A stretch of DNA of 64,000 bases from Gammaproteobacteria bacterium (GCA_021773365.1 JAJFKF010000063.1:3576-67575); one strand, 5' to 3'; numbered from the stretch's first letter, positions 23,085 through 44,572 are shown. The notes: a model not told the origin generated them from the sequence alone. Made by a program: numbers and translations.

Positions 23085-23099
23085 ATCTTCGTCAGTGAC

Positions 23100-23438
23100 T
23101 CATGGGTCAAATGGCTCGGGCTCTTCCTGCATCCAGGCTGGAATGTCGCGTTTGCCATGAAGCACACGCCAAACGTCAATGTGGTCGGTGCGTTCCAGAT
23201 AGAAAACGAGATAAGGATAGCGGCCCAACGGGCAGAAGCGCAGGCCTGGAAGATTCAACTCACCCGCATATCGTAGGGAGCCGGCGGCCGGATGGCGGCT
23301 GATGAGGCTGTATGATTTCTCCAGCGCGTCAATAAAGCCCAACGCTGCGCTGGTTGCGCCCTCACCGAGGTAGTAGCCGACTGCATCTTCAGTATCCCGA
23401 TTGGCTTGGACGCGCGGGATGACTGGTTTGGATTTCAC
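23100..23438 (-). CDS. parE: ParE/RelE-family type II toxin
   Basis: 112 aa with RFCPLGRYPYLVFYLERTDHIDVWRVLHGKRDIPAW, typical of ParE. Overlaps the antitoxin stop by 4 nt. Confidence 0.85.
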   Translation of the reverse strand: MKSKPVIPRVQANRDTEDAVGYYLGEGATSAALGFIDALEKSYSLISRHPAAGSLRYAGELNLPGLRFCPLGRYPYLVFYLERTDHIDVWRVLHGKRDIPAWMQEEPEPFDP

Positions 23439-23683
23439 CGATGTGAACGAGGCTTGGCTGACTTCGCCTTTCGGCGCAGGCCATCGAAGTAGGTCGCGTT
23501 GATCGGTTTTGTTGGCGAAGATTTCGCGCCTGCAAGCAACCGCTCACGCAACTGCAACCGATCCTGATCCTTACGGATGAGTTCCCGAAGGTACTCGCTG
23601 CACGTGCCAAAGCCGCGGTGGCTTACCTGATCGTCGATAAAGTCCTTCATGGACTCCGGCAGGGAAATGTTCATCGTGGTCAT
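23435..23683 (-). CDS. parD: ParD-family (RHH) antitoxin
   Basis: 82 aa starting MTTMNISLPESMKDFIDDQVSHRGFGTCSEYLRELIRKDQDR, the ParD_antitoxin pattern. Lies upstream of parE. Confidence 0.85.
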   Translation of the reverse strand: MTTMNISLPESMKDFIDDQVSHRGFGTCSEYLRELIRKDQDRLQLRERLLAGAKSSPTKPINATYFDGLRRKAKSAKPRSHR

Positions 23684-23915
23684 GTCGAGACCGTAGCCTG
23701 CTTGGCAAAATTTGGCAATGATGGGTTTGCCGGACGCCTACCTGGCGCCAGCTTTGGTGACGGTGAAGGGTACTGGAGGGAAGTGGAGGGGATCAGCTGA
23801 TCAGCAAAATTGGTAACTTGTTGATTACGCTGGCAGCGAGGGACTATTACAGCACCCGTGGCCGGCCTGAACACGCGGGATGTGTGTCTTTCCGCCCCTC
23901 GCGCGTCTTATTGTA

Positions 23916-24440
23916 ATGGCCATGCCTATGCCCGAAATCAGCGACCTAACGCGGTTTCACCGAGACTACCGCCCCGGGTTGATGGCGTTTTTCTTGCGCC
24001 GGGTACGCAATCATGCAGAAGCCGAAGACCTGACGCAGGAGGTGTTCATACGGATCGCGCAGGGTGGCGGGGCCGCGATGAAATCCGCGGAAGCTTATAT
24101 CTTCCAGGTGGCGGCCAACTTGCTGCGGGACCGCGTGCGTCGCAACAAGGTGCGGGATCAGTACTTGGCGGAGCTCAAGCCCGGACTGGACGAGGAAAAC
24201 GAGCTGCTCGATCCCCAGCGCATCGTCGCAGGCAGAGAGGCGTTGGAGCGACTGTCGGAGGGGCTAAGGGATCTACCCGAGCGCACGCGGCTGATCTTCC
24301 TGCTGTTTCGCTACGAAAACTTGGACTATAAAACCATTGCCGACAGCCTTGGCATTTCCACCAGCGCGGTTGAAAAACATGTCTACCGCGCCATGGCGAA
24401 ACTGATTACGTGTACCGAGGGGGAATATGACAACCGCTGA
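23916..24440 (+). CDS. ECF (FecI-like) sigma factor (cassette 2)
   Basis: Track ORF 23880..24440. The likely start is one of the ATGs at 23916, 23922 or 23928. Region 2 (AEDLTQEVFIRIA) and region 4 (NLDYKTIADSLGISTSAVEKHVYRAM). Confidence 0.85.
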   Translation: MAMPMPEISDLTRFHRDYRPGLMAFFLRRVRNHAEAEDLTQEVFIRIAQGGGAAMKSAEAYIFQVAANLLRDRVRRNKVRDQYLAELKPGLDEENELLDPQRIVAGREALERLSEGLRDLPERTRLIFLLFRYENLDYKTIADSLGISTSAVEKHVYRAMAKLITCTEGEYDNR

Positions 24441-25383
24441 AGAGGAAGCCGGACGATGGTGCGTGAAGCTCGCTGGCGCAACCTTCGGGCCGGCAGAGCA
24501 GACCGAGTTCGATCGCTGGATGAATGCCGACCCGACCAATCGAGCGGTGTTCGATCGAGCGCTTGCAGTGTGGCAGGGGCTCTACGACATCGGCCGCTCG
24601 CCGGAGATCATCAGCCTGCGTGCGACAGCCCTGGAAACCATGCGGCGTACCTATGCGCGCAAGTGGTCGCGGCCGATGACCGGGAAGTGGCGGCAGATTT
24701 CGCTGGCTGCGTGCATTCTCGCGCTGGTGAGCGCCGGTGTGTTTCTTCATGGCCGCGCGCCCAGCTATCAGACTCAAATCGCCGAGCACCGCGCCGTGCT
24801 GCTGGAAGACGGTTCTCGTCTGTCGCTGGATGCAGCGACGAAGGTGGACGTGGACTACCGTGAGCGGCGGCGGGATGTGAGGCTGGTGGCAGGACGCGCC
24901 AAGTTCGATGTCGCGCGAGATGCGATGCGTCCGTTCATTGTCAAGGCAGGGGAGAAAACCATCACCGCCATCGGCACCGCTTTCAGCGTGGAAGTGCTGG
25001 AAACCGAAGTCCGCGTGATTCTGTACGAGGGCCGCGTGGCAGTGGATGACGGAGCGGGCGAACGGATATTGGAGCCTGGTAGTGAGCTGGTCGCAGAACG
25101 CGGCCAGCGCGAGTCGCGAATCGAACCGGTTGACCTGGCGCGGTCGCTCAGCTGGGAGTCGGGACAACTGAATTTCATGCGTGAGCCGCTGCGCCTCGCC
25201 GTTGAGCGGATCAATCGCTACAGTGGCAGTACCATTGTAGTCACCGATGAGACCACCGCCGCTATCCTCATTGATGGGGTCTTCAATACCGGGGATTCCG
25301 CCGCTTTTGTCGAGGCGGTGAGTACCGCCTACGCGGTGCAGGTGCGGGAACAAGATGGCCGGATTGTGCTGAGTGGAAAATAG
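24427..25383 (+). CDS. FecR-family anti-sigma/sensor (cassette 2)
   Basis: 318 aa with EEAGRWCVKL, one TM (ISLAACILALVSAGVFL), a GTAFSVEV FecR block and a DUF4974-like tail. Overlaps the sigma gene by 14 nt. Confidence 0.9.
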   Translation: MTTAEEEAGRWCVKLAGATFGPAEQTEFDRWMNADPTNRAVFDRALAVWQGLYDIGRSPEIISLRATALETMRRTYARKWSRPMTGKWRQISLAACILALVSAGVFLHGRAPSYQTQIAEHRAVLLEDGSRLSLDAATKVDVDYRERRRDVRLVAGRAKFDVARDAMRPFIVKAGEKTITAIGTAFSVEVLETEVRVILYEGRVAVDDGAGERILEPGSELVAERGQRESRIEPVDLARSLSWESGQLNFMREPLRLAVERINRYSGSTIVVTDETTAAILIDGVFNTGDSAAFVEAVSTAYAVQVREQDGRIVLSGK

Positions 25384-25460
25384 CATGTGAGACTTGGCGA
25401 ATCTCATGCGTCTTATCCCTTGATCGACACTCCGGCCAGCACACAACTTTGGGGAATCGC

Positions 25461-28400
25461 ATGTTGAAGTGGATTCGCAATCTGATTATCGGGACGTTAT
25501 TCGCTACCGCCGCTGCTGCCGCGCAGCACAACGTTTACAAGTTCGATATCCCAGCACAGACACTGGATTCTGCTCTGCGGGCCTTCGCCAAAACCTCGCG
25601 ACAGCAGATTCTGTTTGACGGGGAACTGGTCCATGAAAAGCGTAACAACGCGCTGGTGGGCGACTACCCGGTGGTGGAAGGATTGACGATTCTGCTTCAG
25701 GGGACTGGGCTCTCGGTCTCGCGGGGGGAGCATGGTGCGTTTGTGATCGCGGCGGCGATCAGCGCGAAAAAGAAAGTGATTCCAGCGACGGCCGGTGCTG
25801 CGGCCGGTGAGGCGCCCTTGCAGCACCTGGCGCTTGCCGATGCCGAAGGTCAATCGCAAGCCGCCGCGTCCACGGTGGAGACTCCGCCGGTCACCGAGGC
25901 GGATACTGCAGGTATTCCCGAGATTCTGGTCCAGGGCACACGCACGCTGAACACCGACATCAAGCGAACTGAGGATGCCGCCCAGCCCTATGTGGTCTTC
26001 GACCGCACGCAGATCGAACGCTCAATGTCCTCCAATCTGGAGGATTTTCTCAAGACGCGCCTGCCGATGAATACGGTGGAGGGCACGAACAGTCAGTCCG
26101 GCAGCTCCACCCGGGGCAACCAGAGTTCTATCAACTTACGCGGACTGGGCGCCAATCAGACGCTGATTCTGGTGGACGGCAAGCGCATGCCAAGCGTCGG
26201 CGGCGCCGGTGTTTTCAATCAACCAGATATCAACGGATTACCACTGGCAGCCATCGAGCGTATTGAAGTGCTGCCATCCACCGCTTCCGGCATCTACGGC
26301 GGTGGCGCCACTGGCGGTGTCATCAATATCATTACCCGGCAGTATCTCGGTATGGATCTGGGTGCGAGCTATGGCAACGCATTCGACAGCGACGTCGCCG
26401 AGCGCCGGTTGGAAGTCAGCGCCGGTTTCGACGTGGAGGGAGGCCGTACGCACGTGCTTGTTTCCGCCAGCCACACCGATTCCAACTCTCTGCTGGTGGG
26501 GGACAGGGATTTCACGGCCCAGGCCAGGGCGCGGCAGTTTGCCAACAATGCCTCAGCATTTTTCACCGCGGCCACTCCGCCTGTGGGGTACACCAGCAAC
26601 ATCCGCAGCCAGAATGGTTTGAACCTTGTTCTGGATAACGGCACGCAACTCAATTCGCCCCATACTTTTGTGCCTGTCGGCTATGCCGGTCCGGCTGCCG
26701 ACGGCGGCAGCGCACTGGTGGCCAATGCTGGCCGCTACAATCTGGAGTTGCCCCGGGATCTGCTGGGTGCTGAGCAGAGCCTGCTCAACAATCCGCAGGT
26801 CAGTTCCGCCTCGCTCAGCTTGCGGCGCGCATTCGGTGAGCGCATTGATGCCTATTCGGATTTTTCCTGGCTCGACAATCGCGGCCGGACGTATTTTGCC
26901 GGCGGTATCGCGACCAGCGTTACGCTCCCCGCCAATGCGCCTAACAATCCTTTCGATTCCGCCATCAATGTGAGTTTTCCGGCACCCGGCCTTTCCTTTC
27001 TGCGTGATACCGGCTCCGAGACGCTGCGCGGCACCGCGGGGCTGATTGTGCGCCTGCCGCGTCGATGGTCAGCCGCGGCCGACTATGTGTGGAGCCGCTC
27101 GCGATCTTCGTTCCTTTCGACGAGCCCAGCCCTCGGGGATCCGGATGGAGCAGCAGGTCCCGGTATTGCGGCAACGGCCGCACTGGCCAGCGGTGCGCTG
27201 AACGTTGTGCGTGACCTGAACGCTTTCCCCCTGGACTACACGCCCTACCTGATGCCGTCGCCGAATTTCATATTCGGTCCGGCAGATACCATCATGCAGG
27301 ATGCCACGTTGCGTCTTTCCGGGCCGGTCATGACATTGCCCGCCGGCCCCCTGACCCTGTCTGCCTTCATCGAGCGGCGCGAAGAGGAGGCGCGGACCAT
27401 GTTTCGCGATAGCATAACCGCTACAGGCGCCACGTTTTCTGTCCTGTGGCCTGGACGTTCGCAAACTGTCCAGTCTTACTATCTCGAGTCGCAGGTTCCG
27501 CTGATTTCAGCCACCCAAGGCTACCGGGCCGCGCGAACGTTCGATCTGCAGGCCTCGATCCGCCACGATAGGTATTTGACCGATTCGCCAAACCCCGCGG
27601 TTGCCGTCGTTCCGTCGCGGGCGGGACCGTATCCAGCGCTGACTTATGTCGACAATGAGGTGACGGCCACCAAGTTCACCCTCGGGTTGCGATATTCACC
27701 GGTCGAGGACGTGGTGCTGCGCGCCAGTTTCGGCACCGGTTTTCTGCCACCGTCCATCAACCAGATCGTGAGCATACCCGGGGGGATCTCCGGCGTTCAG
27801 ACCCTGATCGATCCGAAGCGCGGCGGGATTTCTGCCACCGTGCCGGCATTCTCGTTTGTCTCCGGCGGAAACGCTGGCCTGATCGCGGAGGATTCCGAAA
27901 GCTGGTCAGCGGGCGCGATCTTCACGCCGCGCTTGTTGCTGGGGCTGCGTGTTTCCCTGGACTACACTCGTATCACGAAGACCAATGAAATTGCCGATTT
28001 CGTATTCCAGGCATTGCTCGACCTGGAGGATTCGTTTCCCGGCCGGGTGACGCGCGCCGCAGTGACAGCGGGCGATGCCGCGCTGGGTTATACGGGTGGA
28101 GTCATCACCGAGATAGATATCAGCTTCGCTAACATCGCAGCGACGCGACTGGAAGCCTATGACATGCAAGCCGATTACACGCTGCCGACCACGCGGGCGG
28201 GTGATTTTCACTTTTTTGCCATCGCAACATGGCAACCGGAATTTGAACGCCAAGCTGCGGCAGGCGCGCCTTTCATCAATTTTGCGGATTTCAGCGGTGG
28301 CCCGCTTGAATGGAGAGCCAATGGTGGGGTGGACTGGGATCGCGGTGCGCTGACAGTGGGATGGAGTGCGCAGTACTACGATTCCTTCTTCAGCTATTCC

Positions 28401-28685
28401 GGCACGTCAGCCGGTGCGACGCAGGCCTCCGCGGTGCTGAACCAGGGTTCCGCCACGATCCCGGCGCAGATTTACCACGATATGTTCGCACGTTATCGTT
28501 TTGACTCTTCGCCGACACTGCTGGGCGGAATCTTCGCCAACAGCGAGGTTACGCTGGGCATCCAGAATCTGTTTAACGAGAAGCCACCCACCCTGGCAAC
28601 GACCGGGACTATCGGCGGCTACAGTAACTATGCCGACCCGCGCCTGCGACGTTACACGATCTCGGTACGGAAGAGTTTCAACTGA
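25461..28685 (+). CDS. TonB-dependent receptor with STN domain (cassette 2)
   Basis: ATG 25461 (MLKWIRNLIIGTLFATAAAAAQ). STN block FDIPAQTLDSALRAFAKTSRQQILF, plug INLRGLGANQTLILVDGKRM...IERIEVLP, C-terminal DPRLRRYTISVRKSF. Clear paralogue of receptors 1 and 3. Confidence 0.9.
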   Translation: MLKWIRNLIIGTLFATAAAAAQHNVYKFDIPAQTLDSALRAFAKTSRQQILFDGELVHEKRNNALVGDYPVVEGLTILLQGTGLSVSRGEHGAFVIAAAISAKKKVIPATAGAAAGEAPLQHLALADAEGQSQAAASTVETPPVTEADTAGIPEILVQGTRTLNTDIKRTEDAAQPYVVFDRTQIERSMSSNLEDFLKTRLPMNTVEGTNSQSGSSTRGNQSSINLRGLGANQTLILVDGKRMPSVGGAGVFNQPDINGLPLAAIERIEVLPSTASGIYGGGATGGVINIITRQYLGMDLGASYGNAFDSDVAERRLEVSAGFDVEGGRTHVLVSASHTDSNSLLVGDRDFTAQARARQFANNASAFFTAATPPVGYTSNIRSQNGLNLVLDNGTQLNSPHTFVPVGYAGPAADGGSALVANAGRYNLELPRDLLGAEQSLLNNPQVSSASLSLRRAFGERIDAYSDFSWLDNRGRTYFAGGIATSVTLPANAPNNPFDSAINVSFPAPGLSFLRDTGSETLRGTAGLIVRLPRRWSAAADYVWSRSRSSFLSTSPALGDPDGAAGPGIAATAALASGALNVVRDLNAFPLDYTPYLMPSPNFIFGPADTIMQDATLRLSGPVMTLPAGPLTLSAFIERREEEARTMFRDSITATGATFSVLWPGRSQTVQSYYLESQVPLISATQGYRAARTFDLQASIRHDRYLTDSPNPAVAVVPSRAGPYPALTYVDNEVTATKFTLGLRYSPVEDVVLRASFGTGFLPPSINQIVSIPGGISGVQTLIDPKRGGISATVPAFSFVSGGNAGLIAEDSESWSAGAIFTPRLLLGLRVSLDYTRITKTNEIADFVFQALLDLEDSFPGRVTRAAVTAGDAALGYTGGVITEIDISFANIAATRLEAYDMQADYTLPTTRAGDFHFFAIATWQPEFERQAAAGAPFINFADFSGGPLEWRANGGVDWDRGALTVGWSAQYYDSFFSYSGTSAGATQASAVLNQGSATIPAQIYHDMFARYRFDSSPTLLGGIFANSEVTLGIQNLFNEKPPTLATTGTIGGYSNYADPRLRRYTISVRKSFN

Positions 28686-28769
28686 GCGCGGCCCACGTAG
28701 TTGTGAGCGACTCGGTTGCCGCCAGCCGGATCGCTTCGACTTCGGTAATTCCAGGGTAGGGCATGGACC

Positions 28770-30071
28770 ATGAAAAAGAGTCTCTATCTTCTTGTGGCAG
28801 TATTTTCCGGCGCGGCGTTTGCTGGCGGTGAAGTAAATCAAGGTGCGGCGACCGACGTCGTCGCCGTCAAGTTTTCCAAGGCGGTGCAGGTCATCGACCG
28901 GGCGATGCAGGCTGCCGCACAGACACGGGAATACTCCGCAGAGGTGGAGAAGCGCTATCTGACCAGGAATGACAATGCGGTAGCTGTGCCGCGTCGCTCC
29001 AAAGAGAGCTACTCTTTCCGTGCACCCGCCTGTCTCTGGGCCTTCAGCGATAGCGGCGGGACGGATCGGGACTCGGTGAAACTCGCCGACGGACAGTCTC
29101 ACTATACGTTCAAAGGCAGCCAGCCGCAGACGATCACAAAAATGGCAGCCGGCACCATTTCCGGCGCCACATTTGACGCCTATCCCAACGTGCATCTGTC
29201 CTTGTTGTCTCCCTTGACGATGCAGGTGTATTCGGTGGCTGCATACCGCGCAGACAAAGCTGTTGCGATGACTTACGGGGGACGCGAATTGATCGGTGGA
29301 GTGCTGTGCGACAGAGTTGAGTTCACTGTGCCGGTCCTTCCTCAGATCTGGCAAGAGGCGCGAAAAGCGAACGCCGCGCTGCCCGGAAAGCCCGGCGATT
29401 CGGTTCACACCTATTACTTCGGCACCGAAGATGGTCTGCTGCGCCGGCAACTGGTCGCGACTGAAATTCCAGGCGTTTCACAGGAGTGGTCGGAGGAGCA
29501 ATATACCGTCCGCAAAGTCGATCCGACCGAACAGTTCACATTGGCGCGGCTGGAAGCAGCAGTGAAGCTGATGGTGGTCGGCGGTTCGTTTCCCGTCATC
29601 AAGGATTCATTTAGCGCCAACGGGCAGCCCCTCCCTGCACTGGCAGCTACTGTCGAGGATGGCCACAAGCTGGACTGGAAGGACTATCACGGCAAGGTTC
29701 TTGTGGTGGAGACCTGGGCAACGTGGTGCAGATTCTGCAAGGAGGCCATGCCCTTTTACGAGAGGATGCGCCAGGAACTGAGCGGCAAGGGCGTCGTGTT
29801 CATGGCGTTGAACTTCGAGAAAGACAAGGCACTGTACGAAAAGTGGGTGAAGGACAACCGCAGCAAGTACGACTTCCTATACGCCCGTGCTGACGTGACG
29901 GACGAGAACTGGAATGCGGAGTTGACGAAGTTCAAAGGCGGCCTCCCATCGTTCTACGTAGTGGGTCGCGACGGCAATGTTGTCTCCGGTTACGGCGGAT
30001 TCGGCTACGGTTGGGGCAACGAGGACCCGCGCCTGCTGGTGGCTCTGGCAAAGGCCGGTGTGGATCGCTGA
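28770..30071 (+). CDS. secreted protein with an unknown about 300-aa N-terminal domain and a C-terminal TlpA-like thioredoxin domain
   Basis: Signal peptide MKKSLYLLVAVFSGAAFA. WATWCRFC (Cys codons at 29727 and 29736) within a thioredoxin-fold block (GKVLVVETWATWCRFCKEAMP...LPSFYVVGRDGNV). Confidence 0.75.
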   Translation: MKKSLYLLVAVFSGAAFAGGEVNQGAATDVVAVKFSKAVQVIDRAMQAAAQTREYSAEVEKRYLTRNDNAVAVPRRSKESYSFRAPACLWAFSDSGGTDRDSVKLADGQSHYTFKGSQPQTITKMAAGTISGATFDAYPNVHLSLLSPLTMQVYSVAAYRADKAVAMTYGGRELIGGVLCDRVEFTVPVLPQIWQEARKANAALPGKPGDSVHTYYFGTEDGLLRRQLVATEIPGVSQEWSEEQYTVRKVDPTEQFTLARLEAAVKLMVVGGSFPVIKDSFSANGQPLPALAATVEDGHKLDWKDYHGKVLVVETWATWCRFCKEAMPFYERMRQELSGKGVVFMALNFEKDKALYEKWVKDNRSKYDFLYARADVTDENWNAELTKFKGGLPSFYVVGRDGNVVSGYGGFGYGWGNEDPRLLVALAKAGVDR

Positions 30072-30304
30072 CGCTGCGCCGAAATCGAGGCCATTTGTAT
30101 ACTGACGTTGCTCCGCCAGAGAACATCAAACACTTCTTACGCACTGGGTAATCCCGCCATTTTTTGCCATAGCTAAAAGTACGGGGGCACTGCCGGTGTA
30201 CATTGCCCGCGGCAAGCGCTGGGTTTACCGCACCATCTGCGGCTGTGGTGGCTTGCTGGACTTTCCTCAGGCCGCCATCGAGATGGGTTATGACACCTGC
30301 TGTC

Positions 30305-31159
30305 TCAGCGCAACAACAGGATGGGAATCCGGCACGTGCGAATCATCGCCGTGGTGGTGCTGCCGATAATGAGCTGGCGGATCCGGGAGTGGCCGTAGGC
30401 GCCCATCACCAATAGATCGATCGTGTTTTCGGTGACGTACTGTGCGATTACCGCCTCGGCGTGACCGGGGTGAATGCTCACGTGACTTTCAAATCCACCG
30501 TCAGCCAGTTTCTGCTGCGCCCACTGCAGCTGGGCGCGGGCATCGGCCGTGTCGTTGCCGGCCATCACCAGGTGACAGGGCAGCCCCTTGAAGAGTGGGC
30601 TCGAAGCGATTAGATCGATTCCCTTGCGGGTGGTCTCACTGCCGTCGAAGGCCATGGCGAAGCGTGCGATCGGTCTGAATTGCCGCGAGGCGACTAGCAG
30701 CGGGCGATGAACTGCGCGAACGGTGCGCTCGAGTTCCGCGCCGAGATGCATCTTGGCAAAGTCCGCGTGCTCGCCGCGCTTTCCCAGGACGAAGAGCCGG
30801 ACTTCGGCCTCCAGCTCACACAATGTTTCGACCAGGGAGCCATGTCGCAAACGAGGTTCGACGTGCGTGATCCCCTCTTCCTTTGCCTGTCGAGCCGCAT
30901 TGTCGAGTATCCCGCGGCCTCGTTGCTGAGCAATCTTGCTGCGTTTCTCATCGAGCGCGGCGAGCTCCGACAACAGATGTTCCTGTGCATCGAGGCCAAT
31001 ACTCCCGCTCAAATCTCTCGTTGGCGCCGTTTCGGGGTGGCGATCGAGCACATGAAGAAAGTCCAGCGCCACGCCCAGACGTTTCGCTGCCCAGATGGCG
31101 TGATCGCAAACGCTCTGCGTGTACACGGAGTCGTCGATGCATGCGAGTACCTTGTTCAT
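30305..31159 (-). CDS. tandem-domain universal stress protein (UspA family)
   Basis: 284 aa with two Usp repeats, the second ending LLVMGAYGHSRIRQLIIGSTTTAMIRTCRIPILLLR (G-2x-G-9x-G-S/T motif). Confidence 0.85.
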   Translation of the reverse strand: MNKVLACIDDSVYTQSVCDHAIWAAKRLGVALDFLHVLDRHPETAPTRDLSGSIGLDAQEHLLSELAALDEKRSKIAQQRGRGILDNAARQAKEEGITHVEPRLRHGSLVETLCELEAEVRLFVLGKRGEHADFAKMHLGAELERTVRAVHRPLLVASRQFRPIARFAMAFDGSETTRKGIDLIASSPLFKGLPCHLVMAGNDTADARAQLQWAQQKLADGGFESHVSIHPGHAEAVIAQYVTENTIDLLVMGAYGHSRIRQLIIGSTTTAMIRTCRIPILLLR

Positions 31160-31175
31160 TCCTCACCTCTCTTCG

Positions 31176-34939: not shown

Positions 34940-35007
34940 TGTCTCTTCCTCATAGTGCATGGATTCGGGGGTTAGAAGAAAATGACTAATCCCTGTCAGT
35001 GATCTCA

Positions 35008-35052
35008 TGATAAAGTATCACCACTTATAAATATGTGGGTATAAATTATCAC
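35008..35052 (+). promoter_or_regulatory. repeated ATAAAnTATCAC boxes upstream of abiEi (candidate AbiEi operator)
   Basis: TGATAAAGTATCAC at 35008-35021 (contains the palindrome TGATA-N3-TATCA) and GTATAAATTATCAC at 35039-35052, 31 bp apart, in the AT-rich divergent intergenic region. Confidence 0.3.
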
Positions 35053-35658: not shown

Positions 35659-35677
35659 GCATTCAGGGAACGCGCTA

Positions 35678-36592
35678 GTGGCCAAAGACAAACCCCGCAA
35701 CATGCCCGCGTCCATTCGACAGCGGTTGCTGAACTATGGCGTCGCTGCCAAACTGGACCCAAATCTGACTTTGCTCTGGTACGCATTCGAGCGGCTGTTA
35801 TATCGGCTGTCGATCTCGCCATACGGTGACCGTTTTGTAGTTAAAGGGGCGATGCTCTTTCGAGTATGGGGTGGGCCAGAATTTCGGGCGACGAAGGATT
35901 TGGATTTGCTGGGCGCTGTACGCCAGGAGAGCGAGAGCCTCAAAGAAGCCTTTGCCGTAATCTGCAGGCAGCCTGTCGAAGATGATGGTTTGACCTTTGA
36001 TCCGGCGGGTATGCGTATCAGCGAGATCCGGATCAAAGAGGAATATGGCGGCTTGCGCGTGCTGCTGACCGCGAGGCTGGGGACGGCATTAATTCCGTTG
36101 CAGGTCGACGTCGGGTTTGGCGACGCGGTTACGCCGGCGGCAACTCATGAGGAATTTCCTTCCATGCTGGGCCAGCCTCGCGCACGAATCCGCGCTTATC
36201 CGCAGGAAACAGTCATTGCCGAAAAATATCAGGCGATGGTGGAGCGTGGTATGGCCAACACGCGGATCAAGGACTACTACGATATCTGGTATCTGTCGCG
36301 CCACTTCCAGTTTCATGGGTCTGTACTGGCGTCAGCAATTCGGGCGACTTTCAAGCGAAGAAATATGATGGTGCCTGAAGAACTGCCTATCGGTCTGACG
36401 TCAGCCTATGCCAAAGACACCGCGCATCAGCGGCAATGGAGGGCGTTTGTCTCCAGAATCGGAGCTGACTCGAGATTGGAATTTGAGGAAGTCCTGGAAG
36501 CCGTCGCTGTATTCATTCTGGCGCCTTCGCGCGCCGCTGCAGCAGGGGCCACTGTCACTATCGAGTGGCGTGACGGTGCGTGGCACGGCTAA
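35678..36592 (+). CDS. abiEii: AbiEii/DUF1814 nucleotidyltransferase toxin (type IV TA)
   Basis: Start at GTG 35678 or ATG 35702. FVVKGAMLFRVWGGPEFRATKDLDLLG is the characteristic NTase motif of AbiEii. Confidence 0.85.
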   Translation: MAKDKPRNMPASIRQRLLNYGVAAKLDPNLTLLWYAFERLLYRLSISPYGDRFVVKGAMLFRVWGGPEFRATKDLDLLGAVRQESESLKEAFAVICRQPVEDDGLTFDPAGMRISEIRIKEEYGGLRVLLTARLGTALIPLQVDVGFGDAVTPAATHEEFPSMLGQPRARIRAYPQETVIAEKYQAMVERGMANTRIKDYYDIWYLSRHFQFHGSVLASAIRATFKRRNMMVPEELPIGLTSAYAKDTAHQRQWRAFVSRIGADSRLEFEEVLEAVAVFILAPSRAAAAGATVTIEWRDGAWHG

Positions 36593-36759
36593 CCCGAAGG
36601 AAACGCCCGTGGAGGTGCCTCAATCCTAGTACGCACCTTGGCGCCAGCTATGTGTATCTGGGCGGAATGGAGGGGGCACATAGCAGCGTAGAGGGTTCTC
36701 GATGCCGAGCACCGGATTCGATTCTTTCGGATTCGCATGTCCGGCAATGAATCTCAATA

Positions 36760-37506
36760 TCACAGCAATTTGGCATCCAGATACTGAAGGGTTGTGCGGG
36801 CCAGGTTGATAAACAGAATGGCGTCAGCGTCACCGAGCAGTTGTTTGTTAGGGTGCGCGAGACTACCGCGATTGCGAGCGGGGTTCATGGCGTCAATCAC
36901 GGAGGCAAGCCCCAGCAGCGCTTTCCCGACGGTGTCCTGGTGCGGATCGGAATTCCGCAGGCGAGTATGTTTTTGGCGGAGTGCCTTGAACAAAGACGTC
37001 ATGGGGGCATCTGCAGGCACTGGGATTGACTCGGTCTCACAAGCCGCCTTGATATAGGCGTGTAACGCGGTGTGCACGCGGTCGATTGCGCTGGAGGGGC
37101 CGCTGGAGACGAGCAGGAGTTTAGCGTCAGCCAGGACACGCTCGAGAAGCTCGCTGGTCAACCGCAAATCGGTTGCATCGACTGCTGCTGTCTTATTGCA
37201 TCGCAGCGTAAGCGCTTTTAGTTGCTTGGTCGCTACAGCGGTTCGGGATACCGCTGAATCGACTGGATATTTTTTGGCGACGCCTCGCAGGATGGCCGCC
37301 TGCATCCGCCCGTCCGCGGAGCTCAAAATCTTAAGGAAGCGTTCCCGCGTCGTGCCTTCCAGATCGTCCGGGTTGATGTCGAGATCGCAGAATCCGGGGT
37401 AGAACTCGCGATGGGTCCGATAGGTAAAATCACCCAGATAACCCTCAGCAACGCCAATGTAGGTGTTCATGACCCAGTAGATCTCGCTCTGCTTGAGTTC
37501 TCCCAT
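36760..37506 (-). CDS. abortive-infection family protein with C-terminal Abi_C-like domain
   Basis: 248 aa. The C-terminal block AMNPARNRGSLAHPNKQLLGDADAILFINLARTTLQYLDAKL fits the Abi_C pattern as I remember it. The N-terminal domain is unassigned. Confidence 0.65.
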   Translation of the reverse strand: MGELKQSEIYWVMNTYIGVAEGYLGDFTYRTHREFYPGFCDLDINPDDLEGTTRERFLKILSSADGRMQAAILRGVAKKYPVDSAVSRTAVATKQLKALTLRCNKTAAVDATDLRLTSELLERVLADAKLLLVSSGPSSAIDRVHTALHAYIKAACETESIPVPADAPMTSLFKALRQKHTRLRNSDPHQDTVGKALLGLASVIDAMNPARNRGSLAHPNKQLLGDADAILFINLARTTLQYLDAKLL

Positions 37507-37616
37507 CGATCTGCTCTGTGGCTATCTGCGGATACTTGGCCAGGCTGCCTTAACTTTGGGCTCCGTCTCATGGCATGATATCGGAGTACGGATTCCAATG
37601 AAAAGAACGCCGACCC

Positions 37617-40600
37617 ATGGGGGGGATGATGGATCAGAACGGCATGCCAGCGGCAGAGTCATCAGTTCTGACTGAAGCGCTGCCGCTCACCGATAAGATC
37701 GCGCGGGCGCGGCTCGAGCTTCTGGATCTTTCCGCCCGAAATCGCCTGATCAGCACACCGCGCAGTGGCAAGGCACGGACCGTCGAAGTCGTGCACGAAC
37801 TGGCGGCTGCGATGTACCAGACGCTCGTCATTGACGAGAAACGGTTTACATTTTCCCCGGCGCGCGACACCGATCAGAAGACGAAATCAGGCGCTAGCAC
37901 TGATACCGAGGATGAGTTACAGACTGAGGATCCGCTCACACAGCCCGACGCTGAGCTAGATAAGCAGGGTGATCCCCCGGCGTGTTGGGACGGGCAGCTG
38001 TCGACGCGTATGACGTCCGCCGGTTTGCAGAAACGTCTGTTGGATCTCTATATCGACGCCCGGACTCTTCAGGAAGAGCAGGGCGTCAACATTCTGTATC
38101 TGGCCATTGGTTATCTCAAATGGCGAGACACCACGACGCCGGATGTAGATCGTTATGCGCCGTTGGTGCTGGTGCCAGTGGCGCTGGAACGCAGCACGGC
38201 TGGGGAGAAGTTCCATCTACGCTGGTCGGGTGAAGATATCGAAGCGAATCTCTCGCTACAGGCGTTTCTCGCGCGAAATTTTGGTTTGAGACTTCCCGAT
38301 ATCGATGACTTTGAAGCGTTGGTTATTGACGACTACATGGCGAACGTGGAGACGATGGTCGAGGGCAAGGAGCATTGGGCTGTGCTGCGTAATGACGCCG
38401 TGCTGGGTCTGTTCTCGTTTGCCAAATTCATGATGTACCGGGATCTGGACCCAGAACAGTGGAAAGACGCTGGAGGTTTCGAGGCGATTCCAACGTTGCG
38501 GGGTGTCGTCTCAGACGGCTTTCCTCAGCGTAATCTGATCGATGACGATACGAACGTCGATGCGGTGATTCAGCCAGTCGATATGCTCCATGTGCTGGAT
38601 AGCGATAGTTCGCAGTCGCTCGTGGTTCATGATGCTCGCCAGGGCGCGCATCTGCTCGTTCAGGGTCCGCCAGGTACGGGCAAGTCGCAGACAATTGCCA
38701 ACATCATTGCCGCAGCGGTAGCTGACGGGAAGAGAGTGTTGTTCGTGGCGGAGAAGATGGCTGCGCTCGAGGTCGTGAAGCGTCGCCTGGACGAAGTTGG
38801 TATTGGCGTGGCATGTCTAGAATTGCATAGCAACAAGGCGAAAAAGCGGGCGGTACTGGAGGAGCTCAAGCGGACGTGGCAGCTGGCTCCCCCTCGTTGT
38901 GAGTCCGGCGAGTCGATCGTGTCGCAGCTGGGGACAGCTCGTGATCGTCTGAACGATCATGCGATTCGCCTCCACGAGCGTCATCTGCCTTCCGAGCTGA
39001 CAGCCTATGAGGTGATCGCTGAACTGGTGAGGCTGAAACGGGCCGGTCACAGCACTGGTCGGCTCAAGCTGGATCAGCCCGCGCGATGGCGGCCACACGA
39101 AAAGACCGAGCGGCAATCCATCGTGCAGGATCTCTCACAACGTATCAAGGAGATGGGTACGCCCGTCAACCACGCTTGGTCGGGAGTCGGTAACGATGCG
39201 CTGCTGCCGAATGATCGCGATCGCCTCGTCGATTCCATTGGAAAACTGAGCGCCAATCTCGGATCGTGGCTCACTTTCCTGCGCTCCTTGTCCAGTCAGC
39301 TAGGTCTTGAACCGCCGACACGCTTCTGCGAGGTGTCGGATTTACAGGCGCGCGCCACGCTTCTCGTCGAGGCGCCGGGAATTGGGCCGGACGCATTTCT
39401 ATCTCCGCTGTGGAATGATCCTCAGCAGGCGCGTGGAATTATTGAGGCGCTGGAATTGGCACAGAGCCTCAGTCAAGAAGTACAGGCATTTGCCGCATTC
39501 GATGTTCTGTCGCTGAATTGGTCTTCTGCCGCATCGGCTATTGCTGAGCTGCCGGGCTCGTTTACGTGGGAAGGGGAGCTGGCCGACGTTATTGTCTTGC
39601 ACAGTCTGCTTGAGCGAAGTCAAGCCGATATTCGGCGACTGGTTCAGTTGTTTGGTGAGCAAACGCCAATCACGCTTGATATGGTCCAGCGATTGCTTGC
39701 GATGGCCGAGCGGGCCGAGAGTGTGCCGGAGCTGCAGCGCGAAGCGCTTGTGTCGCACATCTGGGACCGAGGCATTGAGTCCATCGTTGAGCTAATTGAA
39801 AACGTTAAGAAAGTGCAGCACGCCCGAGAGGTTCTTGCGTCGGTGTTTGGCGATTTCGCCTGGACCACTGATCTCATAGAGGTTCGCAACCATCTCGCGA
39901 CGCTGGGTGGTAACTGGTTGCGCTTCTTCAATGGGAACTGGCGTCGATCTCACCGCTTGGTCAAATCGCTACTCGCGACTTCCGTGAAACTAAGCAGTGA
40001 AGAGTTACTCCGCGCGCTCGATCTGCTGCTGACTGCGCGGGCTTCGCAGGATCTGCTGCGAGCACGCGAGACCCAGGCACGTGAAGCCTTTGGGCAGAGC
40101 TGGGACCACGATCGATCAGACGTAGGGTTCCTGCAAAGTGTAGTTGCGTGGATGCGCGAGCTGCGGCCGCTGGGCTTCGAAGCGCGGCAGCGCGTGGCAG
40201 ATCTTGCGGACCGGGAGTTGGCGGCAGAGTTGAACCGTCGTTTAGGGCCTGTCTTGAAGCAAATGCGGGAGTTGTTGGTCCCGATAAATGAAGGCTGCAT
40301 TGCGGCTCGAAAGTTTCCCTGGGGTCAGGAGACCTTGCCGGGCCGTATTCCTCTGACGGCGCTAGTGGAAAAAGTTGCTATTTGGAAAGATGTGCTGGAT
40401 CAATGCGGCGGGCTGACTTGCGTCCCAGCGCGGACGGTTGACGATCTAATAGACCGCATTGTGCTGACGCGGCGAGCACAGAAGTCGCTCGAATACTCAA
40501 AGAGTCAGGAAGAAGCGGGCCGCTCCACCTTCGGTCTGCTCTGGCATGGCCTGGACTCTCAATATGAGACGCTGCATCAGGCTGTTGAGTGGATATCTGC

Positions 40601-43193
40601 GCATGCCGTGCTTAGAGAGTTAGCCTCGCGAACGCGCAATCCTGGGGCATTGCTCGTGGCTGCTGAGAAAGCGGTGAGCTACGTCGATCGCTTCGAGCCG
40701 CGCATTCAAGGAATTTTCGCCAGACTTCGTTTCCAAGGGAACAAAGCACTCCCTGCCGAAGTAAGTGAAGCGTCTCTCGAGACTCTGCTGCATCAGTTTG
40801 TGCGCTGGCATGAACATGCCGAGGGGCTCAAGGAATGGGTCGCGTTTGCCGCACAAGCCAATGAGGGCCGTCGAAAGGGACTGAGTCAGCTGGTCGACGC
40901 CCTCGATCAGGGAGTTCTGGCTCCGGAATTAGCCGCCGCCGCGTTTGATCTGGCGTACTACGAGGCGATCCTGGCTGAGCGCATTGCGGTGTGGCCCGAT
41001 CTCGCGAAGTTCGATGGACTAAAGCACTCACAGTACGTCAGTGCGTTCGGAGTTCTTGATCGCCGACGTATCAGGTATTCCGTCCAGCAGGTGTTAAAAG
41101 CCCATCATGGACAACTTCCTCGGGCGGGGGGCGCCGCTGGACCGACAGGAATTTTGCGTGCGGAGATGGAGCGACGCCGTAAACATATGCCCATTAGGCA
41201 GCTGATGCAGCGCTGCCATGCGGCCGTCCAGGCACTCAAGCCGGTGTTTATGATGAGTCCGCTGTCAGTCGCGCAGTTCCTACCGCCTGGAGTTGTGCGG
41301 TTCGACCTGCTCGTGATTGATGAGGCGAGCCAAGTGCAGCCGGTCGATGCATTGGGCTCGATTGCGCGTGCCAAGCAGCTGGTCATCGTCGGTGACGAGC
41401 GGCAGCTACCACCGACGCGGTTCTTCTCGAGATTGCTGGACGACGGAAGGGACGACGATGAGCAGGGCGCCTCGACTGCGGATATTGAAAGCATTCTCGG
41501 GCTGTGTCGCGCCCGTGGACTGCCGCAGCGCATGCTGCGTTGGCACTATCGCAGTCGTCATCAATCGCTGATCGCGGTCTCAAACAGCCAGTTCTACGAC
41601 AACAAGCTATTCATCGTGCCGAGCCCGTATAACGCTGAAGCCGGCATGGGGCTGCGCCTTCGGCACATGCCGGAGAATACATACGATCGGGGTGAGCAAA
41701 GTATCAATGTTGGCGAAGCCAGAGCCGTCGCCGCGGCCGTCTTGGAGCACGCTCGAGCGACACCGCAAATGAGCCTGGGTGTCGCCACGTTTTCCACCAA
41801 GCAGCGGCGGGCAATTATGGATGAGCTCGAGCTTCTTCGCCGTCAGCGGCCCGACAGCGAAACGTTCTTCGGTGCTCACGAAGATGAGCCGTTCTTTGTC
41901 AAGAACTTGGAGAACGTGCAGGGTGATGAACGGGATGTCATCTTCATTTCGGTCGGCTATGGCCGGGATGCGCAAGGACGCGTAGCGATGTCTTTCGGGC
42001 CATTAAATAGCGAAGGTGGGGAACGGCGGTTGAACGTATTGATAAGCCGTGCCAAACGTCGTTGCGAGATCTTCTCATCTATCAATGATGAAGATATCGA
42101 TCTCGAGCGCGCTAGAGGCAAGGGCGTCGCAGCCTTCAAATGTTTCCTTCGCTATGCGCGCACTGGTCAGCTATCGATCACGAACGAACATGAGGACGAA
42201 TTGCGAAATGCATTCGCTGATCAGGTGGCTGAGGCACTGAAGGAACGCGGCTACAACGTACATTTGAGGATCGGAACCGCCGGGTGCTTTGTGGATTTGG
42301 GTGTGGTGGATACGGAGTTACCCGGACGCTATGTGCTCGGTATCGAGTGTGATGGCAGTTCGTATCGGAAGGCGCGAAGTGCACGAGATCGGGACCGATT
42401 GCGCAGATATGTGCTGGAAGATAAGGGCTGGATCCTGCATCGTATCTGGATCTCGGATTGGTTTCATCGTCCGCAGGCCGAGTTGGAGCGCCTGCTCGCG
42501 GCCATCGGGAAGGCTCGCAGCGAAGTCGATGCCAGAGCGGAGCCGTTTGCCGCCCCGTCCAGAGCCGCACCCGTCGAAGTGGCGACGATTCAGCGAGGCG
42601 AGTTCGTCGCGGTCGGAATGGCGCCGGTCGATGAATCGTCGACGGTAGAGCCGTACGAAGAAGCTGCCTTTCGCACATCGCACAGTCGGCGTGAATTGCA
42701 CGAGCTCCCAAGCTCGATGTTGGCCAGTATCGTGCGGCAGGTGGTTAACATCGAGGGCCCGGTGCACCGCGCGGAAGTAGTTGCACGCATCCGATCTATT
42801 TGGGGTCTACAGCGAACTGGAGGGCGAATTCAGGCGGCGATCGATGTGGCCATCTCCCATGCTCATGAGAAAGGAGAAATCGCAATTGCCGATGAAAGCT
42901 TCCTGTGTCTGCCGGCTGGCTCTATCAAAGTCCGTGACCGCAGCAACGTTTGCTCGCTTGGTCTGAGGCGACCCGAGTACCTCCCGCCTAAGGAAATCGA
43001 CTTGGCGCTGCGGGAGACAATTATTGAAAATTTGGGCGCTACGCTCGAAGAGCTGGTCCTTTGTGTTTCGCGGAAGTTTGGCTATCGAAGCACTAGTGCC
43101 CAGCTCCGCGAGATCATTGAGGCTCGCGTGCACCGCTTGATCGACGAAGGATCCTTTCAGTGGCAGGGAGAGCACCTGACGATTATCGCGTAA
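37617..43193 (+). CDS. 1858-aa multidomain protein: DUF4011-like N-terminus, Upf1-like SF1 helicase (AAA_11/AAA_12), Vsr/DUF559-like endonuclease fold, DUF3320-like C-terminus
   Basis: ELLDLSARNRLIS and GVNILYLAIGYLKW (DUF4011-like). Walker A GPPGTGKS at 38664-38687. LVIDEASQ at about 41313. GDERQLPPT, WHYRSRHQSLI, QGDERDVIFISVGY and RRLNVLISRAKRR motifs. FVDLGV...GIECDGSSYRKARSARDRDRLRRYVLEDKGWILHRIWISDWF around 42339. DUF3320-like tail. Confidence 0.88.
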   Translation: MGGMMDQNGMPAAESSVLTEALPLTDKIARARLELLDLSARNRLISTPRSGKARTVEVVHELAAAMYQTLVIDEKRFTFSPARDTDQKTKSGASTDTEDELQTEDPLTQPDAELDKQGDPPACWDGQLSTRMTSAGLQKRLLDLYIDARTLQEEQGVNILYLAIGYLKWRDTTTPDVDRYAPLVLVPVALERSTAGEKFHLRWSGEDIEANLSLQAFLARNFGLRLPDIDDFEALVIDDYMANVETMVEGKEHWAVLRNDAVLGLFSFAKFMMYRDLDPEQWKDAGGFEAIPTLRGVVSDGFPQRNLIDDDTNVDAVIQPVDMLHVLDSDSSQSLVVHDARQGAHLLVQGPPGTGKSQTIANIIAAAVADGKRVLFVAEKMAALEVVKRRLDEVGIGVACLELHSNKAKKRAVLEELKRTWQLAPPRCESGESIVSQLGTARDRLNDHAIRLHERHLPSELTAYEVIAELVRLKRAGHSTGRLKLDQPARWRPHEKTERQSIVQDLSQRIKEMGTPVNHAWSGVGNDALLPNDRDRLVDSIGKLSANLGSWLTFLRSLSSQLGLEPPTRFCEVSDLQARATLLVEAPGIGPDAFLSPLWNDPQQARGIIEALELAQSLSQEVQAFAAFDVLSLNWSSAASAIAELPGSFTWEGELADVIVLHSLLERSQADIRRLVQLFGEQTPITLDMVQRLLAMAERAESVPELQREALVSHIWDRGIESIVELIENVKKVQHAREVLASVFGDFAWTTDLIEVRNHLATLGGNWLRFFNGNWRRSHRLVKSLLATSVKLSSEELLRALDLLLTARASQDLLRARETQAREAFGQSWDHDRSDVGFLQSVVAWMRELRPLGFEARQRVADLADRELAAELNRRLGPVLKQMRELLVPINEGCIAARKFPWGQETLPGRIPLTALVEKVAIWKDVLDQCGGLTCVPARTVDDLIDRIVLTRRAQKSLEYSKSQEEAGRSTFGLLWHGLDSQYETLHQAVEWISAHAVLRELASRTRNPGALLVAAEKAVSYVDRFEPRIQGIFARLRFQGNKALPAEVSEASLETLLHQFVRWHEHAEGLKEWVAFAAQANEGRRKGLSQLVDALDQGVLAPELAAAAFDLAYYEAILAERIAVWPDLAKFDGLKHSQYVSAFGVLDRRRIRYSVQQVLKAHHGQLPRAGGAAGPTGILRAEMERRRKHMPIRQLMQRCHAAVQALKPVFMMSPLSVAQFLPPGVVRFDLLVIDEASQVQPVDALGSIARAKQLVIVGDERQLPPTRFFSRLLDDGRDDDEQGASTADIESILGLCRARGLPQRMLRWHYRSRHQSLIAVSNSQFYDNKLFIVPSPYNAEAGMGLRLRHMPENTYDRGEQSINVGEARAVAAAVLEHARATPQMSLGVATFSTKQRRAIMDELELLRRQRPDSETFFGAHEDEPFFVKNLENVQGDERDVIFISVGYGRDAQGRVAMSFGPLNSEGGERRLNVLISRAKRRCEIFSSINDEDIDLERARGKGVAAFKCFLRYARTGQLSITNEHEDELRNAFADQVAEALKERGYNVHLRIGTAGCFVDLGVVDTELPGRYVLGIECDGSSYRKARSARDRDRLRRYVLEDKGWILHRIWISDWFHRPQAELERLLAAIGKARSEVDARAEPFAAPSRAAPVEVATIQRGEFVAVGMAPVDESSTVEPYEEAAFRTSHSRRELHELPSSMLASIVRQVVNIEGPVHRAEVVARIRSIWGLQRTGGRIQAAIDVAISHAHEKGEIAIADESFLCLPAGSIKVRDRSNVCSLGLRRPEYLPPKEIDLALRETIIENLGATLEELVLCVSRKFGYRSTSAQLREIIEARVHRLIDEGSFQWQGEHLTIIA

Positions 43194-43300
43194 TTCGCGC
43201 CAATCGTACAGCGTCGCTCTCGCGTTCAATTCGGATTGCTGCGGCTTAGTGGCTCCACAGCGGCTATTAGGCTCTATAGGCTGTTTACTTGGGAACTAAC

Positions 43301-43912
43301 ATGAGCATCTTTGTCCAGTTTAATCGAAAATCTATAGACGATCGCCAGATCGACACCCTTATTGGACTGAGCCATGGTTTGCTGGCGGACGGCAAGATCG
43401 ATGGCTTAGAGGCGCAGTTTCTTTTCGAATGGCTGATACGGAGCCGTCAGTCCACTGACCACCCCATCATCGTCAACCTGCTGTCGAAGGTGAGCTCCAT
43501 GCTGAGCGATGGCATTCTGGATGACGAAGAGACCCAGGAATTGTTGAGTGTCCTGCGTCAAATCACTGGTGAGCCATCCGAATTTGGCGAGATAGCGAAA
43601 AGTGCCTCGTTGCCGTTCTGCGAGCCTGCGCCAACGGTCACCTTCCAAGGCAGGACATTTCTCTTTACGGGGACCTGCGCCTATGGAACCCGCAAACAAT
43701 GCCAGGACGTCACCGAAAAACTCAGCGGCGTGTGCGCCAAGGGCGTGAGTAAGACGTTGAACTATCTTGTCCTGGGAACCTACGTTACCGATAGCTGGAT
43801 ACACGAAACCTTTGGCAGGAAGATTGAAAAGGCGATGCAGTATCGAAATGACGGTGCGCCGATCGCGATCATTTCCGAGACGCATTGGGCGAATGCTGGT
43901 GGGATTCGTTGA
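43301..43912 (+). CDS. TerB-like N-terminal domain fused to a C-terminal BRCT domain
   Basis: ATG 43301 (the track starts at TTG 43289). Two aDGxI(D)xxExxxL repeats (LADGKIDGLEAQFLFEWL; LSDGILDDEETQELLSVL). BRCT-like VTFQGRTFLFTGTCAYGTRKQCQDVTEKLSGVCAKGVSKTLNYLVLG...W. Confidence 0.6.
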   Translation: MSIFVQFNRKSIDDRQIDTLIGLSHGLLADGKIDGLEAQFLFEWLIRSRQSTDHPIIVNLLSKVSSMLSDGILDDEETQELLSVLRQITGEPSEFGEIAKSASLPFCEPAPTVTFQGRTFLFTGTCAYGTRKQCQDVTEKLSGVCAKGVSKTLNYLVLGTYVTDSWIHETFGRKIEKAMQYRNDGAPIAIISETHWANAGGIR

Positions 43913-44070
43913 TCTGAGTGTCTGCAACGCCACGCCGGTCAGGCGAAGCCCAGGGATCTCCTGGCCTTTCGCGCCTACGCCGCCTGCCGGACCGATCCTT
44001 GTTCGCAGGAAATCACCGTTGCAAGTCGGCGCTAGAATGCCCGCTGCCCCGTCTCAGCACCACGACTGCC

Positions 44071-44250
44071 ATGCAACCTATCAACCAGGCCCGCGCAGAT
44101 TCATTTCTGCGTGCTCCTGTGGGTTTCACAACCATTCTCGGCAAGCTGATCACGCTGCCGGCGCTGCCGCTGGTGTGGTGGCGCATGTTGCTGGTGGCGC
44201 TGGCGTTGTTGCTGATTCCCAGCGTGTGGTCCGGATTGCGCTCCACCGCC
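44071..44250 (+). pseudogene. N-terminal fragment of a DMT/EamA-type transporter gene
   Basis: MQPINQARADSFLRAPVGFTTILGKLITLPALPLVWWRMLLVALALLLIPSVW looks like the first two TM helices of an EamA-family protein. The frame then continues into Arg/Gly/Ala-rich sequence with no hydrophobic (TM-like) segments up to 44499. Confidence 0.3.
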
Positions 44251-44572
44251 GGCGCGAGGGTGCCACGCAACCGGAGTTGCTGGGCACCAGCGAGAGTCAC
44301 GCGGTGGTCGATTGAGGCCGCCGCCGGGGAGCTGTTATCAGCCTTTTCTGGCGCAGATTGGCGGGCAACAGCGGCCGCTGTGGTAGGATTCGCGCCCCGG
44401 TTTGGGGCGGAATTCCGGGTTGCCGCAGGATATGCAGCCCAACGCGTGGCCACGTGGGGCGGCGGCGGGGGCTCCGGGTGCCGCGTGACCGATAACTAAC
44501 TGATTTATATTATATTTTTAGGGCTCGAGTCCGCTTGCCTCACTCGAGTTTGCAGACCTGTCGAGAGGGATT

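Follow-up and report, generated by a model that had tools for sequence, protein, structure and literature searches.

Gene content of the interval between tRNA-Gln and prs

The DNA analysed here, a window of 64,000 nucleotides (nt) from a Gammaproteobacteria bacterium (GCA_021773365.1, JAJFKF010000063.1:3576-67575; positions are counted from its first letter), contains an interval of 21.4 kb between a tRNA-Gln gene and prs that is densely packed with approximately 18 genes. The tRNA-Gln(UUG) gene, which forms the left boundary of this accessory block and its presumed attachment site (attB/attL), was placed by ARAGORN at 23010-23084 on the plus strand (anticodon ttg; Rfam tRNA match of 63.9 bits), and prs was found at 44573-45526 on the same strand with three Prs Pfam domains. 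These results confirmed the limits given in an earlier sequence-only reading of the locus, which had let the tRNA end at 23084 and prs start at 44573. The block begins 1 nt past the 3' end of the tRNA and has the genes for TPR-LolB-IspE to its left and those for L25/Ctc-Pth-YchF to its right; with open reading frames (ORFs) of at least 70 amino acids (aa) taken as genes for the comparison with Pfam, its intergenic gaps are shorter than 250 nt, with the exception of the stretch 43913-44572. We consider the block to be, with reasonable probability, a composite, largely defence-related, tRNA-linked genomic island that has decayed by the loss of its integrase and of its right attachment site (attR). 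A genome-wide ARAGORN search found the tRNA-Gln(UUG) gene at 23010-23084 to be single-copy in the assembly. The 3' end of ispE overlaps the tRNA gene by 21 nt, its reading frame running to 23030 and the tRNA gene starting at 23010.

The first genes after the tRNA form a predicted parDE type II toxin-antitoxin (TA) operon (23100-23683, minus strand), which the sequence-only reading had already recognized at a distance of 15 nt from the tRNA. ParE (23438 to 23100, minus strand) matches PF05016 (ParE_toxin) with an E value of 6e-13 and 49.6 bits, above the cut-off, and its stop codon lies 15 nt from the 3' end of tRNA-Gln, so that both the assignment and the distance are borne out. Upstream of parE, with an overlap of 4 nt, is a ParD-like ORF of 82 aa (23683 to 23435, minus strand), whose match to TIGR02606 (E 1e-10, 41 bits) remains under the cut-off of 46 bits. 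The locus thus has the arrangement of a ParDE system as far as it can be predicted from sequence, with a ParE-fold toxin encoded after a small ParD-like ORF in one operon.

Several further genes of the block are predicted to function in defence. A stand-alone exonuclease, which matches the PADLOC model PDLC00753 ('Effector, Exonuclease', E 1.5e-30) and, weakly, PF16473 (Rv2179c-like), is encoded at 34385-35008 on the minus strand and is followed by an AbiE pair (35035-36592, plus strand) consisting of AbiEi (35035-35658; Pfam AbiEi_4; PADLOC E 3e-79) and AbiEii (end at 36592; Pfam AbiEii; PADLOC E 1e-105). The AbiEi winged helix-turn-helix (wHTH) antitoxin directly adjoins the AbiEii nucleotidyltransferase, the gene order of a predicted type IV TA or abortive infection system. 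It is plausible that parDE and AbiE together would make spontaneous loss of the island costly.

The largest module of the block extends from 36727 to 43912 and includes three genes on both strands, identified with Pfam, PADLOC and NCBIfam. An Abi_C protein (36760-37506, minus strand; Pfam) is encoded divergently from a giant helicase gene (37617-43193), whose product of 1858 aa combines DUF4011, an SF1 helicase, an MTES_1575 nuclease and DUF3320 (Pfam). This protein scores 1800 bits with the PADLOC model PDC-S37 and 725 bits with Hhe, and 1499.4 bits with NCBIfam ProA, whose cut-off is 1500, and 990 bits with NCBIfam Hhe. It is followed by the gene for a protein of 207 aa with a BRCT-like C-terminus (43289-43912). 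The best non-self homolog of the giant helicase, with 83% identity, is located on a 9.4-kb public contig (L210, a Logan contig of SRR30360284), which holds the same trio of Abi_C, helicase and a protein of 203 aa at 1329-8500, flanked by a PyocinActivator-family gene. In blastn, positions 36727-43912 of the window are 82.9% identical to this contig over 7192 nt, whereas the flanks are unrelated; the span of homology reaches from 33 nt past the Abi_C stop codon to the stop codon of the gene for the BRCT protein. In addition, a helicase with 58% identity likewise has an Abi_C/HEPN gene as its partner, here beside a Wadjet system (L211, 9109-15604). Because homology stops at the gene ends, because the flanks are unrelated and because the pairing of Abi_C and helicase recurs, the genes for Abi_C, the ProA/Hhe-like helicase and the BRCT protein constitute a discrete cassette of 7.2 kb, which is now delimited and can be tested as a unit. 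A search of genome contigs for loci related to that of the giant helicase yielded no match.

Between parDE and the defence genes lie genes predicted to function in uptake, stress response and regulation. A cell-surface signalling cassette (23880-30071, plus strand; Pfam, NCBIfam) encodes an extracytoplasmic function (ECF) sigma factor (23880-24440), a FecR anti-sigma factor (24427-25383), an STN-type TonB-dependent receptor (25449-28685) and a TlpA/ResA-like thiol-disulfide oxidoreductase (28770-30071). Genome-wide tblastn searches with the ECF, FecR and receptor proteins yielded 39, 40 and 58 matches, respectively. Among 5.8 billion proteins the best matches of the island receptor include paralogs from its own genome, with 54% and then 48-49% identity, and one external protein with 55%. 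As the top matches include paralogs of the same genome, and as the genome holds dozens of copies, the receptor cassette is of own-lineage origin and derives from an expanded paralog family of this lineage. Two further ECF/FecR/TonB-receptor cassettes are present in the window, at approximately 6600-11500 and 48500-53400.

A different history is suggested for the adjacent genes on the minus strand (30305-33004; Pfam), which encode a universal stress protein (Usp, 30305-31159), a SulP/STAS anion transporter (31176-32651) and a doubtful ORF of 117 aa (32651-33004; G+C content at third codon positions, GC3, of 0.53). No SulP ortholog was found in 24 genus representatives of the same family. Proteins with 71-74% identity are encoded in three genomes from other families of the order (L207-L209), where a usp gene is adjacent whose product is 39-48% identical, and ispE of the window is only 59% identical to that of G025, the best of these three genomes. 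Since the transporter is absent in the family, since its similarity to proteins outside the family exceeds that of ispE and since the adjacency has been kept, the Usp-SulP pair was gained horizontally as a unit. Downstream of these genes are a second ECF sigma factor (33184-33771, plus strand; Sigma70_r2/r4_2) and an ORF overlapping it, which together occupy 33184-34348 on the plus strand (Pfam). This partner ORF showed no family match in Pfam, PADLOC or NCBIfam, and it is possible that it encodes a membrane anti-sigma factor.

At its right edge the block ends with a stretch of non-coding DNA or debris (43913-44540, GC content 64%) without a Pfam or Rfam match and without homologs in relatives. 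The sequence-only reading had seen a transporter gene fragment here; the candidate ORF (44070-44315) has a GC3 of 0.57, which is atypical of genes in this genome, shows no Pfam match at E<=0.05 and has no homolog in 40 relatives, and the fragment could therefore not be verified. The AT-rich stretch noted close to the right end is present, as a tract overlapping a sigma-70-like promoter match (44485-44513, GTGACC-17-TATTAT; promoter scan) located 60 nt before prs. Directly upstream of prs there is a hairpin with a stem of 7 bp (44525-44549, CTCGAGT-N11-ACTCGAG). Promoter match and hairpin may have arisen through the insertion as a substitute promoter or leader. Now separated from transcription of ispE and the tRNA, prs is probably transcribed from this promoter-like, AT-rich tract (44485-44513).

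The empty site in related genomes

We surveyed 250 genomes of the family Steroidobacteraceae, to which the uncultured source organism belongs, for ispE and prs, and found both genes on one contig in 81 of them; the genus of the source organism is represented by one genome in our collection. In 74 of the 81 genomes (about 91%), which cover some 40 genera, the gap between ispE and prs measures 81-288 nt and includes only the tRNA gene; in seven genomes it is larger than 300 nt, which corresponds to an occupancy of about 9%. Contiguity of ispE, tRNA-Gln and prs thus holds within the family. Among the first 29 relatives inspected, prs directly follows tRNA-Gln in 22, and in a wider sample of 160 gamma- and betaproteobacterial loci the site is empty in 126 of the 139 informative cases (21 loci were too short, and 13 showed larger or unknown gaps). 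In the closest genus (G020), whose IspE is 71% identical, the spacer between tRNA and prs has a length of 77 nt, and its only matches to the window are 'ATCT' behind the tRNA and TGTCGAGAGG ahead of prs, which sets the limits of the insertion to approximately 23085-44552. The right boundary is accordingly the native prs gene together with its conserved leader of about 20 nt (TGTCGAGAGG, common to G020), at 44553-45526 on the plus strand.

Because the site is empty across the family and in the wider sample, the empty state is ancestral, and the block in the window is a derived insertion. The alignment across ispE to prs that the sequence-only reading had proposed thus defined an empty site, and relatives with the same genes at this position, which would have spoken for an ancestral arrangement, were not among the genomes surveyed. 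No exact protein match was returned for ParE, for Prs or for the BRCT-like protein of 207 aa. An identical ispE is present on one public contig of 1.7 kb, which ends inside the tRNA and is therefore uninformative, and a metagenome scan found ispE identities to the window of at most 70%.

Composition

The island also departs from the core genome in its composition. Its GC content is 58.7% compared with 63.0% for the genome, and only 2% of all 21-kb windows of the genome show an equally low value. Tetranucleotide distances reach the 98th percentile in 34380-44380 and the 90th in 23085-33084, compared with the 15th to 70th in the flanks. GC3 varies from 0.53 to 0.76 among the island genes, with a genome median of 0.75 and values of 0.76-0.84 for the flanking core genes. 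The deviation is therefore real but moderate, and the profiling recommended in the sequence-only reading did not return the uniform composition that would have pointed to native DNA.

Occupied sites at the same tRNA

The seven larger gaps measure 3.5 kb (G072), 3.6 kb (G019), 10.35 kb (G010), 21.5 kb (the genome of the window), 28.9 kb (G002), 40.5 kb (G097) and 107.8 kb (G178). In G010, an island of 10.2 kb is located between perfect 49-nt repeats of the tRNA 3' end (L031, G010:C25, 9680-9728 and 19911-19985), the distal copy being 17-37 nt before prs. It carries a type II Wadjet system (JetA2-D2) and a RES-domain gene beside a weak wHTH ORF; no integrase was found in this island. The larger gap in G097 includes 36.6 kb between perfect 48-nt repeats (L034, 160-209, and L035, 16529-16576), with five TonB-dependent receptors, a major facilitator superfamily (MFS) transporter and redox genes, and without a PF00589 match in a scan that was directed at this family and at a subset of ORFs, so that other types of recombinase are possible. 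Both islands look like cis-mobilisable elements (CIMEs), and their repeats, being perfect, point to an insertion in the recent past or to an integrase from elsewhere that still acts on them.

Integrase genes are present at other occupied sites. In G178 the tRNA is followed by a tandem array (L037/L038, G178:C48, about 35.2-143.0 kb), in which an 8.8-kb element with a split Arm-DNA-binding/PF00589 integrase and an IetA-IetS defence pair, a 50-nt repeat, approximately 97 kb of further DNA and a 44-nt repeat located 15 nt before prs succeed each other. In the genome G259 a remnant of 4.4 kb is left, which includes part of an integrase and a repeat of 50 nt with 96% identity, and in G243 an integrase gene lies no more than about 0.5 kb from the tRNA. 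On the contig of the closest metagenomic relative (L126; ispE 70% identical), the tRNA is followed by a tyrosine integrase gene facing it (PF00589, 44 bits), a helix-turn-helix (HTH) gene and SIR2-HerA. Judged from these sequences, tRNA-Gln(UUG) evidently serves as a working attB in other genera of the family, with a core of 44-50 nt, tandem accretion and cargo that is often anti-phage. The site in G002, in turn, is occupied by metabolic genes over 28.9 kb, without a repeat or an integrase. No cargo common to the window island and the other occupied sites was detected at E<1e-6.

The insert in G019 lies between ispE and tRNA-Gln, that is upstream of the tRNA (L033, G019:C1, 16434-19950), unlike all other insertion points. 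In G072 (G072:C5), which belongs to the same genus, the gap between ispE and prs is of similar size.

Absence of an integrase, insertion sequences and attR

The sequence-only reading had noted neither an integrase or transposase nor any obvious copy of the 3' end of the tRNA, and the searches made here agree with it on both points. A six-frame search of the whole genome for PF00589 found nine matches, none of them on the 70.5-kb contig C117, and no recombinase or transposase was detected among the island ORFs scanned against Pfam. Island DNA does not recur elsewhere in the genome, paralogs of the receptor and of TlpA excepted, and thus the island does not contain copies of insertion sequences. 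In a direct-repeat scan with the last 25 or 16 nt of the tRNA and up to three mismatches, the candidates for a relic attR were only the tRNA itself or chance matches; blastn-short found direct matches of the tRNA 3' end of at most 9 nt, and the best Smith-Waterman score was 26 compared with a maximum of 26.9 +/- 3 for shuffled queries. All matches are thus at the level expected by chance. Internal repeats consisted of short two-copy matches only and were discarded, as a sequence of this length should by chance alone yield about 14 pairs of 12-mers. A match of 16 out of 18 nt between 23086-23103, directly after the tRNA, and 31170-31187 was likewise dismissed as a chance finding. The only non-coding RNA detected by Rfam in the island and at its right edge was the tRNA.

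Origin of the island

In the history that we consider probable, one or more integrase-borne elements would have inserted at tRNA-Gln by site-specific recombination, and later deletions and exchange of modules would have removed the integrase gene and attR. The integrase would be expected beside the tRNA, in the position and orientation that ParE now holds, as is seen on L126 and in G178 and, for the position, in G243. The attR site would be expected within approximately 130 nt of prs (15-37 nt in G010 and G178), where debris, the AT-rich tract and the hairpin are found today. We infer the loss of both by analogy with these sites. As integrase and attR are absent, the island can presumably no longer excise and would be fixed, and the tRNA would have been kept exactly intact by selection because it is the sole tRNA-Gln(UUG) gene. 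The proposal of the sequence-only reading that this is a decayed, tRNA-linked island is thus supported indirectly, in that the same tRNA carries repeat-bounded islands in other genera, some of them with an integrase. That the island is also a mosaic, as had been suggested, follows directly for one module from the breakpoints at 36727 and 43912, and is suggested by the fact that the receptor cassette and the Usp-SulP pair differ in origin. The sequence comparisons thus show a modular island, whose modules have separate histories.

Several observations weigh against this history. Neither attR nor a trace of an integrase is present anywhere in the window, and a site-specific origin is for this reason argued by analogy with relatives from other genera. 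Two independent losses would be required, which would have to spare the tRNA completely, and the end of parE is only 15 nt away from it. Furthermore, none of the islands in relatives shares a gene with the window island, and part of the cargo may be local, because GC3 of many island genes is within the normal range of the genome. The missing repeat and integrase are what would be expected if the site were a hotspot independent of integrases, similar to the core defence hotspots of Pseudomonas aeruginosa. The block would then have entered, or been reshaped, between two conserved core genes either through illegitimate recombination or, once DNA had been taken up, through homologous recombination in the flanks, and this lineage would never have gone through a site-specific step. 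The flanks are indeed highly conserved core genes, the insert in G002 likewise has neither feature, the 7.2-kb cassette has been exchanged with breakpoints at gene ends, and hotspots without identifiable mobilisation genes have been described (PMC10250203, PMC10121019). We nevertheless regard this explanation as rather unlikely, since integrases clearly use the site for attachment in five further genomes or contigs from the family, and since the left edge of the block is within 15 nt of the tRNA 3' end, as expected for attL.

Two further explanations are much less probable. If the genes were native and had been lost elsewhere, one would expect what is seen for the ECF/FecR/TonB-receptor cassette, which belongs to a paralog family native to the genome, and for several genes with a GC3 close to the genome median. 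Such an ancestral arrangement is very improbable, as the site is empty in the great majority of the family genomes, including the closest genus G020, no occupied relative shares genes with the window, the composition is atypical, and the relatives of SulP and of the helicase cassette are patchily distributed and found outside the family. No more weight can be given to an assembly artefact, that is a chimeric contig in which foreign DNA was joined at the tRNA: the source is a metagenome-assembled genome (MAG) of 157 contigs, tRNA genes are frequent break points, and the public contig with the identical ispE ends inside the tRNA, yet two joins would be needed to restore the order and orientation of ispE-tRNA-Gln and prs-rplY-pth-ychF, and the receptor cassette within the block is closest to paralogs of the same genome.

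On a broader scale, we tentatively propose, as a possibility rather than an expectation, that the junction of tRNA-Gln(UUG) and prs is a family-wide platform for cargo exchange, at which small integrase-bearing 'driver' elements would insert beside integrase-less blocks and mobilise them, be it in cis or in trans. Candidate drivers would then be the IetAS element of 8.8 kb in G178 and the integrase/SIR2-HerA element on L126, and the islands of G010 and G097 cargo. Defence cassettes such as the 7.2-kb unit might be swapped as modules, and the window island might be an end state devoid of attachment sites; for these parts of the proposal, too, our confidence is low.

Relation to known systems

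The decayed tRNA-linked island favoured here resembles tRNA-linked integrative genomic islands, which enter the 3' ends of tRNA genes by means of a tyrosine integrase (Williams 2002, as cited in PMC10121019), in its insertion at a tRNA 3' end, its atypical composition, its accessory cargo and its absence from most relatives, and in that the same tRNA hosts integrase-bearing, repeat-flanked islands in sister genera. Unlike these, it lacks an integrase, attR and genes for transfer or excision, and is thus not a functional member of the group. Decay to integrase-less CIMEs that are still flanked by attachment sites and tandem accretion are documented routes for elements at such sites (PMC5704250). 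The window island is comparable to CIMEs and to tandem accretion of integrative and conjugative or integrative and mobilisable elements (ICE/IME type), as outlined in PMC5704250 and in Pavlovic et al. 2004 cited there, in that it is an integrase-less remnant at a site of tandem stacking. However, a CIME keeps both attL and attR; the window island lacks not only the integration genes but also attR, and therefore falls outside this class, being decayed further and presumably not mobilisable in cis.

Hotspots for defence genes that are linked to tRNAs or poor in integrases are known in E. coli and P. aeruginosa (PMC10121019, PMC10250203). With the core defence hotspots (cDHS) of P. aeruginosa (PMC10250203) and those of E. 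coli, 18 of which are at tRNA loci (PMC10121019), the site shares its location between core genes and its varying anti-phage systems, and in some of these cases mobilisation genes are absent as well. Different systems are indeed found at this one core site, namely AbiE, the ProA/Hhe-like helicase, Wadjet, IetAS and SIR2-HerA. In contrast to the near-universal occupancy of those hotspots, only about 9% of the genomes are occupied here, far from most of them, and defence genes make up only about half of the window island, the remainder being cargo for uptake, stress response and regulation. The position of ParDE at the edge of the island and of AbiE within it is reminiscent of stabilization by TA modules as reported for Salmonella genomic island 1 (Huguet et al. 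2016, as cited in PMC5704250), and the island of G010 also has a RES-domain gene; a difference is that ParD of the window is under the NCBIfam cut-off.

Within one poorly studied and mostly uncultured family, a single site thus presents an unusually complete series of states, which includes empty, integrase-bearing, tandem, repeat-flanked but integrase-less, and att-less loci. The window island, with its clear boundaries, would illustrate cleanly how an island linked to a tRNA turns into a lasting component of the chromosome, and is as such an ordinary kind of object that does not call for a new mechanism. The junction of tRNA-Gln(UUG) and prs is in addition a place to mine for defence systems in the Steroidobacteraceae.

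Other integrase genes near tRNAs

Three other tyrosine integrases are encoded in the genome within approximately 1 kb of a tRNA gene, at tRNA-Ser GCT (C69, about 77.9-79.3 kb), tRNA-Leu CAA (C30, about 21.3-22.7 kb) and tRNA-Cys (C79, about 12.6-14.0 kb). These loci probably represent intact tRNA-linked islands, and because of them this mode of insertion can be assumed to operate in the organism itself. C30 is among the regions with the lowest GC content of the assembly.

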